NCBI RefSeq assembly: GCF_000186885.1
Contig: NC_014972.1
Coordinates: forward strand, 450,001 to 482,000
Direction: 5' to 3'
DNA: 32,000 nucleotides
Source of the DNA: Desulfobulbus propionicus DSM 2032
Lineage (GTDB): Bacteria; Desulfobacterota; Desulfobulbia; Desulfobulbales; Desulfobulbaceae
Shown: positions 14,206-31,275 of the stretch, in pieces
Numbering within the stretch: position 1 is the stretch's first letter
Layout: every line of letters begins with the position of its first letter
Program-made: the position numbers and the translations under genes
The notes under the pieces: generated by a model
Database searches by the model: none
The model's input: only the letters and a program-made list of their open reading frames with translations
Told to the model about the DNA's origin: nothing

Positions 14206-14283
14206 CGGGGCGTAGCGCAGCCTGGTTAGCGCGCCTGCCTTGGGAGCAGGAGGTCGAGTGTTCGAATCACTCCGCCCCGACCA
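14206..14283 (+). tRNA. tRNA-Pro (anticodon UGG), CCA encoded
   Basis: Hand-folded cloverleaf: CGGGGCG/TA/GCGC-AGCCTGGTTA-GCGC/G/CCTGC-CTTGGGA-GCAGG/AGGTC/GAGTG-TTCGAAT-CACTC/CGCCCCG/A/CCA. Confidence 0.93.
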
Positions 14284-14728: not shown

Positions 14729-14803
14729 TGGTGGGCGATACAGGATTTGAACCTGTGACTTCCACCGTGTGAAGGTGGCACTCTCCCGCTGAGTTAATCG
14801 CCC
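14729..14803 (-). tRNA. tRNA-Val (anticodon CAC), CCA encoded
   Basis: Reverse complement folds as GGGCGAT/TA/ACTC-AGCGGGA-GAGT/G/CCACC-TTCACAC-GGTGG/AAGTC/ACAGG-TTCAAAT-CCTGT/ATCGCCC/A/CCA. Confidence 0.92.
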
Positions 14804-26860: not shown

Positions 26861-27727
26861 TTAGAGGGAGAGGTTCTGGAGGGCGTGGTGCAAAGCGTTC
26901 GGGATGGCCCCGATCAGCTCGGCAACCTGCGTGGCCGGAGTGGGATGGGCGAACAAGCCGCACAGCCGATTGGCCGTGGCCGCGACAACGGCGGCTTGGA
27001 TCGGGGCAACACCTGATGCGCACAAGCAGGCCAGCAATCCGGTGAGCGTGTCACCTGTGCCCCCGATGGCCTCCATCGCCGGAAACGAAGGGCTGCTGAC
27101 CTCGGCAACCACCTGATCCCTGCACGCAATGTAATCCGTGCCGCCCTTCACCAGCAGATGGGTGGCGGCATTGCCGTACCGGTATGCCTGATGGATCAGT
27201 TCTTCAACCTTGTTGTGTTGATGGAGGAGGAATCCTCTTGTGTAAAAAGGATGCGGCGCCATTTCATCCGCCAAGAAAGCCAGCTCGCCGGCATCGGGCG
27301 TGAAAAAATCATAGCTGGCCGCCTGGCCACTCATCTTGGCCGCATACATGAAGCCCGCATCGGCAATCAACATCGGCGGCGTGGCCAGGGCCTCGACGGC
27401 AAAGAGCACCTTGGTGTGCCAATCCACATCGGGTTGCAGGTAATGAAAGGTGAGCACGTGCAGGTCATGCGCCTGCACGTGCTGGGTGAGGAATTGATAG
27501 ACACGCCGACTCCCTTGCCCGGTGCCGATATCTCCGGCAATGAAAGCGTAAATTTCCGGACCGTCGAGATATTCAGCCGCCTTGGCCGCCGCCGCAAGCA
27601 ACGCCGGCGTGCCGCGATGAATGGGAATACGCTGGTCGGCGAGCCACAGCTGGCCATCCAGCATGCGCGCCCGCCCATGAAGCAGCGGTACGCGGGCATC
27701 AGGAATCGTGCCAACTATGCCAAGCAT
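26861..27727 (-). CDS. Ribokinase-superfamily / YjeF_C (carbohydrate-kinase)-like protein of unknown substrate
   Basis: C-terminal AMEAIGGTGDTLTGLLACL matches the GG(S/T)GDxLxG anion-hole motif of NAD(P)HX dehydratase and HMP-kinase-type folds. The N-terminal part is divergent. The start overlaps the upstream ORF by 13 nt, which suggests translational coupling. Confidence 0.65.
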   Translation of the reverse strand: MLGIVGTIPDARVPLLHGRARMLDGQLWLADQRIPIHRGTPALLAAAAKAAEYLDGPEIYAFIAGDIGTGQGSRRVYQFLTQHVQAHDLHVLTFHYLQPDVDWHTKVLFAVEALATPPMLIADAGFMYAAKMSGQAASYDFFTPDAGELAFLADEMAPHPFYTRGFLLHQHNKVEELIHQAYRYGNAATHLLVKGGTDYIACRDQVVAEVSSPSFPAMEAIGGTGDTLTGLLACLCASGVAPIQAAVVAATANRLCGLFAHPTPATQVAELIGAIPNALHHALQNLSL

Positions 27728-28269
27728 CGCCGCCGGAGCTCCTCATGGGCCCGTTCAAGTGCGTACCCGCACAAAGTATGTCCAATGTCGCGTGGCCGGG
27801 GGGCGTCGCTGAGTTTTTTCCCCACCAGCTCGTTGGCCAGATACGGGACATCCGGGCAGCCGCCGCCGGAAATGTTGACGATTTCCAGGGTGTTCTTGGC
27901 CACGGTCATTTTCATGTTCGCGGCGCGCACCATGAGATAGTCGCCAAAATCCGTCACCGCAAACAGGTCGACCGGGGCGAGTAGCGGCGCGGTCACCGGC
28001 ACGATGCTCAGCGGAAAAATGTTCGCCCGTTCAAGCATCCGCCTGATGGCCAGTTCCTCGATCAGCGGGAACTCAATGACCAGGTCGCAGCCGGTTTGCA
28101 GCTCGGGAGGCGGCCCCATGACCCGAACCGGCATGTCCTGTTGCTTGAGCAGGGTTTCACACCGGATCACCTCGCTGGTGTGCTCAAAAACCATGATGCC
28201 GCGGCCCGCGCCATCCCCGTGGATGTCCGAACGGGGCGCGGATCTGATTCTTTTCAACCAGCCAAACAC
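27715..28269 (-). CDS. DUF3343-like (putative Se/S carrier) domain fused to an uncharacterised C-terminal Cys-containing domain
   Basis: MVFEHTSEVIRCETLLKQQDMPVRVMGPPPELQTGCDLVIEF resembles small DUF3343 proteins found next to TusA/YedE genes. The C-terminal half carries ISGGGCPDVPY. GTG 28269 lies 3 nt after, and in frame with, the TGA stop of the TusA-like ORF. ATG 28194 is an alternative start. Confidence 0.6.
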   Translation of the reverse strand: MFGWLKRIRSAPRSDIHGDGAGRGIMVFEHTSEVIRCETLLKQQDMPVRVMGPPPELQTGCDLVIEFPLIEELAIRRMLERANIFPLSIVPVTAPLLAPVDLFAVTDFGDYLMVRAANMKMTVAKNTLEIVNISGGGCPDVPYLANELVGKKLSDAPRPRDIGHTLCGYALERAHEELRRRCLA

Positions 28270-28272
28270 GAA

Positions 28273-28491
28273 TCAGCCCTTTCCGATCGTGATCCGGTAC
28301 CCATCGTCTTCGGCCACGATCTCGACGACCTGCCATCCCAGGCCGGCGGCAGCGCGGCTCACGTTTTCCCTTGCCGTATCGGTGTCCACCAGGACAACCA
28401 GTTCCTTGTTTTCCTCTTTGCGCATTGCCTCAAGGGCCATGATTACCGGTTGCGGGCAGGAAAGCCCCCGGGCGTCAACCATCGTTGGCAT
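28273..28491 (-). CDS. TusA/SirA-family sulfurtransferase-like protein (YedF-like)
   Basis: MPTMVDARGLSCPQPVIMALEAM.. has the canonical D-x-R-G-x-x-CPxP motif of the TusA/SirA/YedF family. It lies immediately downstream of yedE. Confidence 0.85.
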   Translation of the reverse strand: MPTMVDARGLSCPQPVIMALEAMRKEENKELVVLVDTDTARENVSRAAAGLGWQVVEIVAEDDGYRITIGKG

Positions 28492-28503: not shown

Positions 28504-29598
28504 TTACGCGTTCTTGTTTCGCATGGTCAAGCCGATGAACAGGCACACCGCCAGCCCGACCACCACCGCCGCGATCCCATGGGGGCCGATACCGTTCGGG
28601 GTGCTGGCCAGTCCGAAATTATGGGCAAAGCCCGCGCCGACAATCATGCCCAAAACGAAAACGGCCGCGTCGCCATCCCCTTCGCCGGCGAGAAAGAGTT
28701 GCCGCCCCGGGCAGCCGCCGGCCAGGGAAAACGCGAGACCGGCCAAGCTCATGCCGGCAAAGTTCCACACATGCTGATTGTGCGCTATCGGCTGCCCGGT
28801 AAAGCCCGGATGGAACTGGCCGAGAAGCATGTTGGTGACCCACGCAAAAAAGATGAGACTGACAAAACCACTGAGCAAGTGGGTATGGCCAAACAGCAGG
28901 CCGTCGCGAATGGCGCCCATGGTGCAAAAACGGCTTCTCTGGGCAAGGATGCCGATGCCCACGCCGATGGCAAGCGAGACCCATAGCGGTGCGTGCATGG
29001 AACCTGGTCCCTTCAGGCTGTAGAAGAGAAACTCACTTTTCGCCTGACCTTCGGGTTGTGGCGCGATCAGCAGCAAGGCAAGGAAACCGAGCATGATCAG
29101 CGGCATGATCCAGCCCACGGCCGCGTGCGTCGAGTGGGTCCGGCCGAGAGTGTACCCCCGTTTCAACAGCAGGGTGCCGATCCAGATGCCGAACGTCAGG
29201 CCGGCAAGCCCCAGCAACGCGTTGCCGTCGCCGCCCGCCAATCGCAGCGCCGCCCTCCAGGGGCAACCGAGGAAAACCAGGGCCCCGATCATCGCGAAAG
29301 CTCCCAACACAAAACGAACAATGGGCGCCGAGCCCACGCGTGGACGAAACTCCTTGGCCAGATAGGCGGCAATCAATGCCCCAAGCACAAAACCGATGAT
29401 CTCGGGCCGGAGATACTGCACCACTTCCGCCCGGTGCAGGCCCAACGAGCCTGCAATGTCTCGTTCGAAGCAGGCCACGCAAATTCCCATGTTCGCGGGA
29501 TTGCCAAATTTCTGCAGAAAGGCCGCCAGGATGCCGATGATGGCACCCACGCCGACGATGCCCCACCTGGTGGCGAACACATTCTTCCCTCTCATCAA
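28504..29598 (-). CDS. yedE: YedE/YeeE-family putative selenium/sulfur-compound transporter
   Basis: Polytopic membrane protein with repeated Cys motifs: GICVACFERD, LGCPWR, RSRFCTMG and AGGCPGRQ, characteristic of the YedE family. Confidence 0.88.
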   Translation of the reverse strand: MMRGKNVFATRWGIVGVGAIIGILAAFLQKFGNPANMGICVACFERDIAGSLGLHRAEVVQYLRPEIIGFVLGALIAAYLAKEFRPRVGSAPIVRFVLGAFAMIGALVFLGCPWRAALRLAGGDGNALLGLAGLTFGIWIGTLLLKRGYTLGRTHSTHAAVGWIMPLIMLGFLALLLIAPQPEGQAKSEFLFYSLKGPGSMHAPLWVSLAIGVGIGILAQRSRFCTMGAIRDGLLFGHTHLLSGFVSLIFFAWVTNMLLGQFHPGFTGQPIAHNQHVWNFAGMSLAGLAFSLAGGCPGRQLFLAGEGDGDAAVFVLGMIVGAGFAHNFGLASTPNGIGPHGIAAVVVGLAVCLFIGLTMRNKNA

Positions 29599-29626: not shown

Positions 29627-29893
29627 TCAAGATTTTGCAAACGGACACGACAGGTCCGCGGCGCGGTAAATGTGCCGCTCCCCGCAACAGGGGCATGGGG
29701 CGGTGAGCACCACTTTTGCATCCAGTGTCTTGGCTCCATGCTCGTCCCGCACCACGCCGTTGTTCTCCCTTATCTCGAAATGGCAGCTGGTAAAATCCTG
29801 TCCGGTTCTCGGGCAGAGGAACAGCAAGGACATCATGGTTTGCTGCTGTTGTCGCAAGCGCTGAAACATCGTGGACCCATCGCCAAAAAGCAT
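29627..29893 (-). CDS. Small Cys-rich (zinc-ribbon-like) hypothetical protein, first ORF of the yedE operon
   Basis: ..LFLCPRTGQDF..(C-P-x-x-G) and ..APCPCCGERH.. form two Cys knuckles. The start is uncertain (ATG 29893, 29869 or 29833/29830) and no clear RBS is present. Confidence 0.45.
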   Translation of the reverse strand: MLFGDGSTMFQRLRQQQQTMMSLLFLCPRTGQDFTSCHFEIRENNGVVRDEHGAKTLDAKVVLTAPCPCCGERHIYRAADLSCPFAKS

Positions 29894-29943
29894 GTTGTCA
29901 AAAAAAGCGCCCTACGATATCATTGCGATCGTCAATAAGTCAA

Positions 29944-29958
29944 ATAGATTAAATCTAT
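29944..29958. promoter_or_regulatory. Perfect palindromic T-N11-A box (candidate LysR-type regulator binding site)
   Basis: ATAGATT-A-AATCTAT is a 7-1-7 perfect inverted repeat fitting the LTTR T-N11-A consensus. It lies 51 nt upstream of the operon's first ORF (-) and 41 nt upstream of the divergent UCA tRNA (+). Confidence 0.5.
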
Positions 29959-29998: not shown

Positions 29999-30095
29999 GA
30001 CTGGTTGAGTTGGCTGGCGCCGGCCGCGGGCTTCAACCCCGTCGGGCCGCCTGTGCAAGGGCGGCCGTTTGGTTCGATTCCAAAACCAGTCTCCA
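29999..30095 (+). tRNA. tRNASec-like opal-reading tRNA (anticodon UCA) with a 12-bp acceptor/T branch and U73; non-canonical selC-like (possible Cys/Sec suppressor)
   Basis: Hand fold: GACTGGTT/GA/GTTGGC-TGGC-GCCGGC/C/GCGGG-CTTCAAC-CCCGT/CG/GGCCGCC-TGTGCAAG-GGCGGCC/GT/TTGG-TTCGATT-CCAA/AACCAGTC/T/CCA. It has a 6-bp D-stem with a 4-nt loop, a 7-bp variable arm, a GGTTCGATTCC T-arm and an encoded CCA. Confidence 0.8.
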
Positions 30096-30354: not shown

Positions 30355-31275
30355 TCAATCCGTGCGGGAGGCCCCGCCTTCCCGCTCCGCTTGTGTCCGC
30401 AGATGCTTGACAAAGGCAGAAGCGGCGGGGTGAAGCGCTTTGTTTTTGCGGGTGACGAGAGAAAAGGGGCGTTCGCCCGAAACATCCTTCACGGAAAGGG
30501 CGACCAGCGAGCCGCGCTCCAACTCCGCCCGCACGGACCGGCGCGAGAGCATCGAAATTCCCACTCCGGCCTTGACCGCCTCCTTGACCGCCTCATTGGA
30601 GCCGAATTGCGCCACCTCCCGCAGGTCGGACTCCTTGTATCCCTTGTTTTCGAGAATGTGGGCGATATTCTTCCGGGTCCCCGAGCCTTGCTCCCTGAGA
30701 ACAAAGGGCTGGGCCAGCAACTCGCTGACAGGAATCGGTTGTCGGTCGATCAGGGCGCTGCCCGGCTGGGTGATCAGAACAAGGGTGTCGTGAAAAAGCG
30801 CCTGCCATTCGAGACCGCGCTCGTTCCAAATTCCCCCGACCAAGCCAAGGTCATATTCGCCATCAAGCACTTTTTTCGCGATGGCCCGTGAGCCGCTGAC
30901 ATGCACGATGGTTTTGATTTGCGGATACTGCTGGTGAAACATGCCGACGATTGCGGGGAGAATATAGGTTCCGGGAATACTGCTGGCACCGATGAGCAAA
31001 TTGCCGACAAACTGCCCGCTATAGTGAACAATGGCCTCCACGGCCTCCTGCTGCAGGCGGAGCATTCGGGTGGCATAGCTGTACAGAAGCTGTCCGACCG
31101 GGGTTGGTTCCACCTCCCGGCCAAGGCGATCGACCAATTTTTGGCCGAGTTCCTCCTCGAGATTCCGGATATGATCGCTCACCGTCGGTTGCGAAAGCTG
31201 CACCGCCTGAGCGGCCTTGGTAAAACTTCGCAGCTCGACGACCTTGCAAAATGCGTCAAGTTTTCGGATGTCCAT
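30355..31275 (-). CDS. LysR-family transcriptional regulator (selenium-metabolism-associated LysR subtype by context)
   Basis: N-terminal wHTH MDIRKLDAFCKVVELRSFTKAAQAVQLSQPTVSDHIRNLEEELGQKLVDR plus a LysR substrate-binding domain. It lies upstream of the yedE/tusA cluster. Confidence 0.88.
   Translation of the reverse strand: MDIRKLDAFCKVVELRSFTKAAQAVQLSQPTVSDHIRNLEEELGQKLVDRLGREVEPTPVGQLLYSYATRMLRLQQEAVEAIVHYSGQFVGNLLIGASSIPGTYILPAIVGMFHQQYPQIKTIVHVSGSRAIAKKVLDGEYDLGLVGGIWNERGLEWQALFHDTLVLITQPGSALIDRQPIPVSELLAQPFVLREQGSGTRKNIAHILENKGYKESDLREVAQFGSNEAVKEAVKAGVGISMLSRRSVRAELERGSLVALSVKDVSGERPFSLVTRKNKALHPAASAFVKHLRTQAEREGGASRTD

Follow-up and report, generated by a model that had tools for sequence, protein, structure and literature searches.

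A tRNASec-like tRNA with anticodon UCA and discriminator U73 between a yedE operon and a LysR_Se gene in Desulfobulbus propionicus

The tRNA gene

The window analyzed here is a stretch of 32,000 nucleotides from the 3.85-Mb chromosome of Desulfobulbus propionicus DSM 2032; four proteins encoded in it have the same sequences as ADW16641, ADW16642, ADW16647 and ADW16648 of this strain. Coordinates are window positions unless the number of another locus (L007 and the like) precedes them. The window carries a real tRNA gene at 29999-30095 on the + strand, which resembles the selenocysteine (Sec) tRNA, tRNASec. The evidence supports its membership in the selC* tRNACys class, also named tRNAReC, a kind of tRNA known since 2017; this assignment rests on the features of the tRNA and on its locus (the window and ~9 kb of L001). 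ARAGORN, which a sequence-only reading of this DNA had named as a check, reports tRNA-SeC with anticodon tca at these positions. The gene obtains 59.0 bits (E=1e-09) on the Rfam model RF01852 (tRNA-Sec), for which the gathering score is 47, and the fold is thus accepted by the covariance model whose rejection that reading had held out as a counter-argument. The minimum free energy (MFE) fold is an 8/4 cloverleaf (8 pairs in the acceptor stem and 4 in the T stem) of -48 kcal/mol (z=-2.6), and was equalled by one of 200 shuffles. Both calls and the fold agree with the cloverleaf and the anticodon loop CU-UCA-AC that had been proposed. The fear that standard programs would miss the gene was unfounded, but they do label it Sec. 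The parts of the gene are as follows.

29999-30092, + strand: tRNA body, G1 to U73 (ARAGORN, Rfam, MFE fold, covariation in 33 relatives)
29999-30006, + strand: acceptor stem, 5' strand
30009-30014/30019-30024, + strand: D stem
30015-30018, + strand: D loop
30026-30030/30038-30042, + strand: anticodon stem
30031-30037, + strand: anticodon loop
30033-30035, + strand: anticodon TCA (UCA), which reads UGA (sequence, ARAGORN, Rfam)
30045-30052/30059-30066, + strand: variable stem
30069-30072/30080-30083, + strand: T stem in the 8/4 arrangement; 30068-30072/30080-30084 in the 7/5 arrangement
30073-30079, + strand: T loop
30084-30091, + strand: acceptor stem, 3' strand
30092, + strand: discriminator U73 (direct reading)
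30093-30095, + strand: encoded CCA end (direct reading)

The acceptor strands read directly as GACTGGTT/AACCAGTC, the first pair being G1:C72, and are joined to the D stem by a linker of 2 nt. The D stem has 6 bp (GTTGGC/GCCGGC, including two U.G pairs) and a tetraloop, TGGC, as previously described. The anticodon stem has 5 bp; the sixth pair of tRNASec is replaced by a C.C mismatch, and U33 and A37 flank the anticodon in the loop CTTCAAC (CUUCAAC). The variable arm had been described as perfect over 7 bp; these seven Watson-Crick pairs are present and one U.G pair extends the stem to 8 bp (GGCCGCCT/GGGCGGCC). The T stem (TTGG/CCAA) contains no bulge. The T loop TTCGATT is followed by exactly 12 nt, then by T (U73) and CCA, so that both the count of 12 nt and the presence of U73 (T at 30092) instead of G73 were correctly read at the outset.

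Relatives of the tRNA

Relatives were collected in two scans. The first covered species-representative genomes with a pattern of the T arm and the acceptor 3' strand that left the discriminator free, and the second covered metagenomes with the D-arm/anticodon-arm motif alone. All counts of relatives given here are counts among the matches listed, and are lower bounds. The first scan found at least 33 distinct relatives, in Desulfobulbales, other Desulfobacterota, Nitrospirota, Eisenbacteria, Acidobacteriota, Planctomycetota, Clostridia and Coriobacteriaceae. In the alignment of 33 sequences 95.8% of the cells pair and 15 of the 31 pairs have changed on both sides, values that were reached by none of 500 shuffles; slid registers were also far below them. 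The D stem and the variable stem covary, and relatives preserve each of the four stems along with the T loop, G18G19 and A37, with compensatory changes. Covariation thus supports every helix of the family. Compared with the window, for instance, L012 has C-G for G-C in the variable stem and A-U for G.U in the anticodon stem, both compensatory, and in L007 A-U replaces G-C in the D stem.

The two scans together gave at least 101 distinct sequences with the D/anticodon-arm motif. A 12-nt acceptor/T 3' strand followed by U73 is found in 98 of them. All 98 have G1:C72, and their anticodon is UCA (88 sequences) or GCA (10 sequences). The other three have an 8/5 branch, G73-CCA and a GGAAG start, and are ordinary tRNASec; no sel genes were found at the loci that carry them. 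Of the 99 distinct sequences that a script assigned to the 12-bp model, a total that includes the mis-assigned L165, 61 encode the CCA end. On the Rfam tRNA-Sec model the three canonical relatives obtain 71-77 bits, the window tRNA 59, and the U73 members 48-64, a range that covers just the 27 of them that reach the gathering score. Without exception in the 101 relatives listed, a 12-bp branch is accompanied by U73 and an 8/5 branch by G73, which shows two separate classes. The split of 98 to 3, together with the conservation described above, makes the window tRNA a member of a large conserved class that is related to tRNASec yet separate from it. The earlier view of a tRNASec-like gene that is not a canonical selC is therefore upheld by its 12 pairs, its U73 and this clean split.

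It is certain that the acceptor/T branch of the window tRNA has 12 pairs rather than 13. Position 65, the fifth nucleotide after the T loop, has two potential partners: position 8, which gives 8/4, and position 49, which gives 7/5. Of the 33 aligned sequences, 28 can form the pair 8:65 and all 33 the pair 49:65. Among the 98 U73 relatives listed an 8/4 branch is possible in 82 and a 7/5 branch also in 82: 16 allow 8/4 only, 16 allow 7/5 only, and 66, including the window, allow both. Covariation was tried as an arbiter between the two arrangements and gave a tie. Since the pairing counts are tied, comparison leaves the arrangement in the window tRNA undecided and only the number of pairs is firm. 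The branch had been described as 8/4 (or 7/5); the 12 pairs of this description stand, while 8/4 as such is not established, both pairings being possible.

These data also bear on whether the gene may encode a second genuine tRNASec, which would be charged by seryl-tRNA synthetase (SerRS) through its long variable arm, converted from Ser to Sec by SelA and delivered by SelB, its U73 being merely unusual. Both Rfam and ARAGORN call it Sec, and its D arm and variable arm are tRNASec-like. One Pelotomaculum lineage of tRNAReC has reportedly lost its cysteine (Cys) elements and inserts Sec, which would count for such a function. Moreover, tRNASec with a discriminator other than G (A73) exists (PMC8124441), as do tRNASec species with a 12-bp (8/4) branch (PMC5389517), and the linkage to selenium uptake genes described below fits a use during selenium import. 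However, the strict association of U73 with the 12-bp branch and of G73 with the 8/5 branch sets the two classes apart, in ten U73 relatives the anticodon is GCA, that of Cys, and the Rfam score of the window tRNA is 12-18 bits under those of the three canonical relatives. In addition, tRNAs of this type with U73 are now classed as tRNAReC (PMC13582414). We therefore regard a second tRNASec as quite unlikely.

Side by side with this family, another tRNASec-like family was observed that also has UCA and U73 but differs in its body, and whose branch is unambiguously 7/5 (L015, L016, L020, L025, L059, L072, L080 and L098; for example L016:3366-3463, + strand). The two members tested, those of L016 and L020, obtain 57-59 bits on the Rfam tRNA-Sec model. 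In L016, L025 and L080 the tRNA of this second family lies between HdrA-like and FlpD/MvhD genes. A molybdopterin formate-dehydrogenase-like gene is next in L080, and one is also found downstream of the tRNA in L072. The HdrA, MvhD and FdhA-like gene families at these loci are classical selenoprotein families.

Gene neighbourhood

The tRNA gene lies in a gap of 461 nt between the start of a small open reading frame (ORF) at 29893 and the stop of a LysR gene at 30355. Both flanking genes are on the - strand, in agreement with the gap of about 460 nt and the antisense position noted earlier. The selenium/sulfur cluster that had been recognized around the tRNA is also real, as judged from the matches of YedE (TIGR04112), TusA, Se_S_carrier (PF11823) and the LysR protein (NF040786). 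The neighbouring genes are listed below.

26861-27727, - strand: YjeF_C/carbohydrate-kinase-like gene, last of the operon (PF01256, 2e-11, a weak match)
27715-28269, - strand: DUF3343/Se_S_carrier gene (PF11823, 2.5e-20; also PF26554)
28273-28491, - strand: tusA-like gene, 72 aa (PF01206)
28504-29595, - strand: yedE, putative selenium transporter gene, 363 aa (TIGR04112, 482 bits)
29627-29893, - strand: small conserved ORF that opens the divergent operon, 88 aa if read from its first ATG
30355-31275, - strand: LysR_Se gene, for a LysR regulator associated with selenium metabolism (ADW16647), convergent with the tRNA (NF040786, LysR_Sec_metab, 301.8 bits, cut-off 250)

The small ORF is reduced to 69 aa (29627-29836) by gene callers. 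It begins ...LFLCPRTGQDFTSCHFEI... and is 49-59% identical in L007, L012, L013 and L183; no Pfam or NCBIfam match was found for it. The YjeF_C/kinase-like gene is the constant last gene in every yedE-tusA-DUF3343 operon examined (for example in Desulfosarcina widdelii and in L126). Beyond the LysR_Se gene lies the end of a sigma-54 activator gene, also on the - strand.

Parts of this arrangement recur. The LysR_Se gene is convergent with the tRNA in eight loci (the window, L007, L012, L024, L053, L091, L105 and L120). In the Desulfobulbales loci L024, L053, L091, L105 and L120 its product has 64-74% identity, and that of L053 obtains 297.5 bits on NF040786. The yedE operon is tied to the tRNA in three architectures. 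In the first, the operon is divergent from the tRNA (window, L007, L012 and L183). In the second, selB, a tRNA with anticodon GCA, yedE, tusA and DUF3343 follow each other on one strand in L034 (Coriobacteriaceae) and L126; the kinase gene comes next in L126, while the contig of L034 ends before it. The third is found in nine metagenomic loci (L140:10752-10849, L225:4509-4606, L190, L193, L144, L154, L166, L205 and L220), in which a U73/UCA tRNA immediately adjoins genes of the yedE operon and shares their strand. Here yedE ends 8-33 nt upstream and/or the DUF3343-kinase genes start 30-65 nt downstream, and both sides are so occupied in seven of the nine. A selD gene adjoins the tRNA in L061 (Nitrospirota). 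YedE and LysR_Se have been reported solely in organisms that contain SelD, and nearly all carriers of LysR_Se decode Sec (PMC5322559).

In the third architecture the tRNA occupies the place that is held by tusA in the window. An A2.C71 mismatch and the lack of an encoded CCA are features of some tRNAs of these loci and of others in the same acceptor group.

The same tRNA is divergent from yedE in L007/L008 and L012, where YedE is 86-90% identical. No such tRNA was found at yedE operons with 80-83% YedE identity (Desulfosarcina widdelii L010, L011, L013, L014), so that the linkage of tRNA and yedE is not universal.

A programmed read-through from tusA into the DUF3343 gene was considered and rejected. 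The TGA stop of the window tusA (28273-28275) is in frame with the next start (28269), and the resulting fusion of a TusA-like part and DUF3343 would presumably resemble the domain layout of YedF. With the same spacing, however, the stop is TAG in L012, where the tRNA is present, and TAA in L013, where it is absent, and we take the frame to be a coincidence. A scan of the window for coding on both sides of an in-frame TGA, as in selenoprotein genes, returned this tusA case alone.

Some other genes were observed near these loci. In L105, from a Desulfobulbus metagenome-assembled genome, a gene for a MauE/DoxX-family membrane protein (L105:2215-2694, - strand) is divergent from the tRNA, with an ATAG-N7-CTAT box between the two; a homologue (L010:16158-16667) lies near the yedE operon of D. 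widdelii, beside rhodanese and C_GCAxxG_C_C genes. In two Desulfobacterales genomes cobalamin riboswitches of ~115 bits (L011:13900-14088 and L014:9853-10041) precede a DUF3450/MotA-ExbB/ExbD/TonB_C cluster just downstream of the yedE operon. The window also has two ordinary tRNA genes, tRNA-Pro(UGG) at 14206-14283 (+) and tRNA-Val(CAC) at 14729-14803 (-), each with ~68 bits on the Rfam tRNA model.

Regulatory region between the tRNA and the yedE operon

The interval between the small ORF and the tRNA has 105 nt and contains two promoter-like sites and one palindrome.

29895-29923, + strand: promoter-like TTGTCA-17-TATCAT facing the tRNA, ~70 nt upstream of G1 (10/12 scan match)
29914-29943, - strand: promoter-like TTGACT-18-TATCGT (with TG) facing the small-ORF/yedE operon (scan)
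29944-29958, no strand: perfect palindrome ATAGATTAAATCTAT, a T-N11-A LysR-type box (sequence reading)

The -10 elements of the two predicted promoters overlap. The palindrome abuts the -35 element of the predicted promoter that faces yedE and lies within the tRNA leader. The hexamers, their spacing and the box are retained in L007 and L012 despite diverged sequence between them; in the predicted promoter facing the tRNA the hexamers and the 17-nt spacing are kept while the letters of the spacer differ. Six copies of the motif ATAG-N7-CTAT are present in 748 kb of family loci, and five of them are located within 150 nt upstream of the tRNA. The product of the neighbouring LysR_Se gene may bind this palindrome. 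In several Desulfobulbales loci (for example L024, L105 and L065) a near-consensus predicted promoter is found directly upstream of the tRNA; in L024 and L105 it is TTGACT-17-TATAAT.

Comparison with known tRNA classes

The sequence-only reading had mentioned tRNASec mimics, possibly charged with Cys, in some deltaproteobacteria. Such a class exists (PMC5389517, PMC13582414). The selC* tRNACys of Mukai et al. 2017 are tRNASec-like tRNAs with U73 and anticodons GCA or UCA, found in anaerobes that include Deltaproteobacteria (PMC5389517). They were later renamed tRNAReC, and the criteria given for tRNAReC in 2026 are a length of at least 80 nt, anticodon UCA or GCA and discriminator U (PMC13582414). 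The window tRNA shares with them the tRNASec-like body, the 12-bp branch, U73, the anticodon UCA (with GCA in relatives) and the linkage to selenium genes. Its host, too, is an anaerobic sulfate reducer of the former Deltaproteobacteria (Desulfobulbales).

There are also differences. Some selC* tRNACys have an 8/4 branch with a bulged A51a, which is absent from the window tRNA; the bulge is dispensable (PMC5389517) and is therefore a trait of a subgroup. In Syntrophobacterales and Desulfobacterales selB* lies downstream of the selC* tRNA, and one subgroup also has cysS*, matched to A1:U72 (PMC5389517). The window tRNA has G1:C72 and, unlike the published deltaproteobacterial members, neither selB* nor cysS* downstream. 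It lies instead between LysR_Se and the divergent yedE-tusA-DUF3343-kinase operon, and has a regulatory region in common with that operon. The main text of PMC5389517, as distinct from its supplement and from Vargas-Rodriguez 2018, does not mention yedE or LysR. This genomic wiring to the yedE operon and to LysR_Se is what may be new.

Canonical tRNASec (selC, RF01852) has in common with the window tRNA the 6-bp D stem with a 4-nt loop, the long variable arm, the anticodon UCA with A37, a score above the Rfam gathering score and the D/anticodon-arm motif, which is shared by the three canonical relatives. It differs in having 13 acceptor/T pairs and not 12, G73 (rarely A73) and not U73, an anticodon stem of 6 bp where the window has 5 bp and C.C, and 71-77 bits against 59.

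The class has also been connected with suppression of UGA. Together with an engineered cysteinyl-tRNA synthetase (CysRS), a member from D. biacutus acted as a UGA suppressor in E. coli, and the wording of the authors, that such a tRNA "may function as opal suppressor" (PMC5389517), raises the question of a general suppressor. Such a tRNA would be brought by EF-Tu to any UGA, where it would insert Cys (or Ser) independently of SelB and of the Sec insertion sequence (SECIS), and would be harmless through low or conditional expression. The window tRNA has no dedicated selB* adjoining it, and its 12-bp branch is that of ordinary elongator tRNAs, which EF-Tu accepts. On the other hand, selB stands beside family members in L034 and L126, the related U73/UCA family lies inside an hdrA-mvhD-fdhA-like operon, and genome-wide read-through of UGA would be costly. 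The TGA at the end of tusA, the single case examined, is TAG or TAA in relatives, and so gives no sign of adaptation to read-through. For the class itself recoding is reported to depend on SECIS: in the passage of PMC13582414 that cites Vargas-Rodriguez 2018, tRNAReC reads UGA as Cys given a downstream SECIS. A general opal suppressor is thus unlikely.

The allo-tRNAs (8/4 and 9/3 types; Clostridia, Proteobacteria, Acidobacteria) have a 12-bp branch, a tRNASec-like D arm and a long variable arm, may have U73, and in some cases were proposed to be regulatory. The window gene could be an element of this type, or a decaying or non-translational tRNA-like RNA, for instance an element that serves processing or regulation in the yedE region. 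Its same-strand position beside yedE-operon genes in nine loci would suit a processing site. Moreover, L007 and L008 (L007:9511-9607, - strand; L008:7952-8048, - strand) have C33 for the near-universal U33, in a loop CCUCAAC, and mismatches in their stems; the C33 may reflect either decay or a tolerated or functional variant. The anticodons of allo-tRNAs are, however, very diverse (35 of 64 codons), and these tRNAs are associated with toxin-antitoxin or transposon genes, which makes the window tRNA unlike them. In its family the anticodon is UCA or GCA and the discriminator U73 in all 98 relatives listed, and the neighbours are selenium genes or unrelated housekeeping genes. The conservation of four stems, T loop, G18G19 and A37 with compensatory changes, and the near-consensus predicted promoter right upstream of the tRNA in several Desulfobulbales loci, also speak against an element that is decaying or outside translation. 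Either origin is highly improbable.

C33 was also observed in L046 and L020; it thus occurs in three separate groups of these UCA tRNAs.

Proposed function

We lean, with some reserve, towards a Cys-charged UGA decoder that backs up Sec sites and is possibly switched by selenium. Observed directly are the tRNA gene and its fold, its membership in the family, the rule that joins U73 to the 12-bp branch, and the repeated linkage to selenium genes. For Cys charging, UGA decoding and SECIS dependence the model draws on the literature on other members of the class. The housekeeping CysRS would charge the tRNA with Cys, because its first pair is G1:C72 and there is no dedicated CysRS* nearby, and the presence of the Cys anticodon GCA within the same U73 family argues for a Cys identity. 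The tRNA would read UGA and put Cys at Sec codons, and SelB would probably deliver it at SECIS-marked sites, as for a clostridial member of the class. Its expression may track the selenium supply, as suggested by the region shared with the yedE operon, the overlapping predicted promoters, the palindrome and the adjacent LysR_Se gene, and Cys would then serve as a backup under selenium scarcity.

Several observations weigh against a Cys-inserting backup. The anticodon has U34 in place of G34, a CysRS identity element, which weakens recognition by CysRS. A long variable arm and G73/U73 have been proposed as SerRS elements (PMC5389517), and two allo-tRNAs that were tested inserted Ser in E. coli; charging of the window tRNA with Ser, and hence its use for Sec, is therefore possible. 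Genes similar to SelB or CysRS (selB*, cysS*) were not found in the remaining 1.9 kb of the window or in a further ~9 kb (L001), and many members of the family have neighbours unrelated to selenium. The C33 of L007/L008, together with their mismatches in the anticodon stem (U.U) and the variable stem (G.G), indicates that constraint has been relaxed in at least one lineage. Finally, co-expression with a selenium importer could equally mean that the tRNA is needed while selenium is in use.

As for the switch, the analysis of the intergenic region allows a tentative scheme. LysR_Se, acting at the ATAG-N7-CTAT box, might switch on selenium uptake and the Cys-inserting UGA decoder together, so that one set of genes would give Sec enzymes with selenium and Cys enzymes without it. 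A precedent is the archaeal orthologue of LysR_Se, HrsM, which represses Cys isogenes under adequate selenium and binds to an intergenic region (PMC5322559). In Methanococcus maripaludis yedE mRNA rises 5.3 log2-fold on selenium starvation (PMC11097638). Methanococcus thus also has LysR_Se at an intergenic region, a Cys substitute governed by selenium supply, and yedE in the starvation response. The backup there, however, consists of duplicate Cys genes, while D. propionicus would rely on a tRNA that gives the same genes a second reading.

Biological significance

The window tRNA is of a known kind in a different and informative genomic context. The tRNAReC class is a natural case in which one codon has two amino acids by way of two look-alike tRNAs, and the division of labour between tRNAReC and tRNASec was still called unclear in 2026 (PMC13582414). 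The present copy is in a cultured and sequenced host and, given G1:C72, should need no special CysRS*. As it is tied to a putative selenium regulator, a candidate site and an uptake operon, the physiological role of tRNAReC becomes directly testable. Since ARAGORN and Rfam label the class tRNA-Sec, a genome may be credited with selC, or with two of them, although one of these genes specifies a Cys tRNA. The "selenoproteins" predicted from such a genome may be synthesized in part with Cys. If true, the proposed function in selenium starvation would be the equivalent in bacteria, built on a tRNA, of the Cys isogenes that HrsM controls in Methanococcus, and the repeated placement of the tRNA next to yedE-operon genes, selB and selD across several phyla would be the trace left by that coupling.

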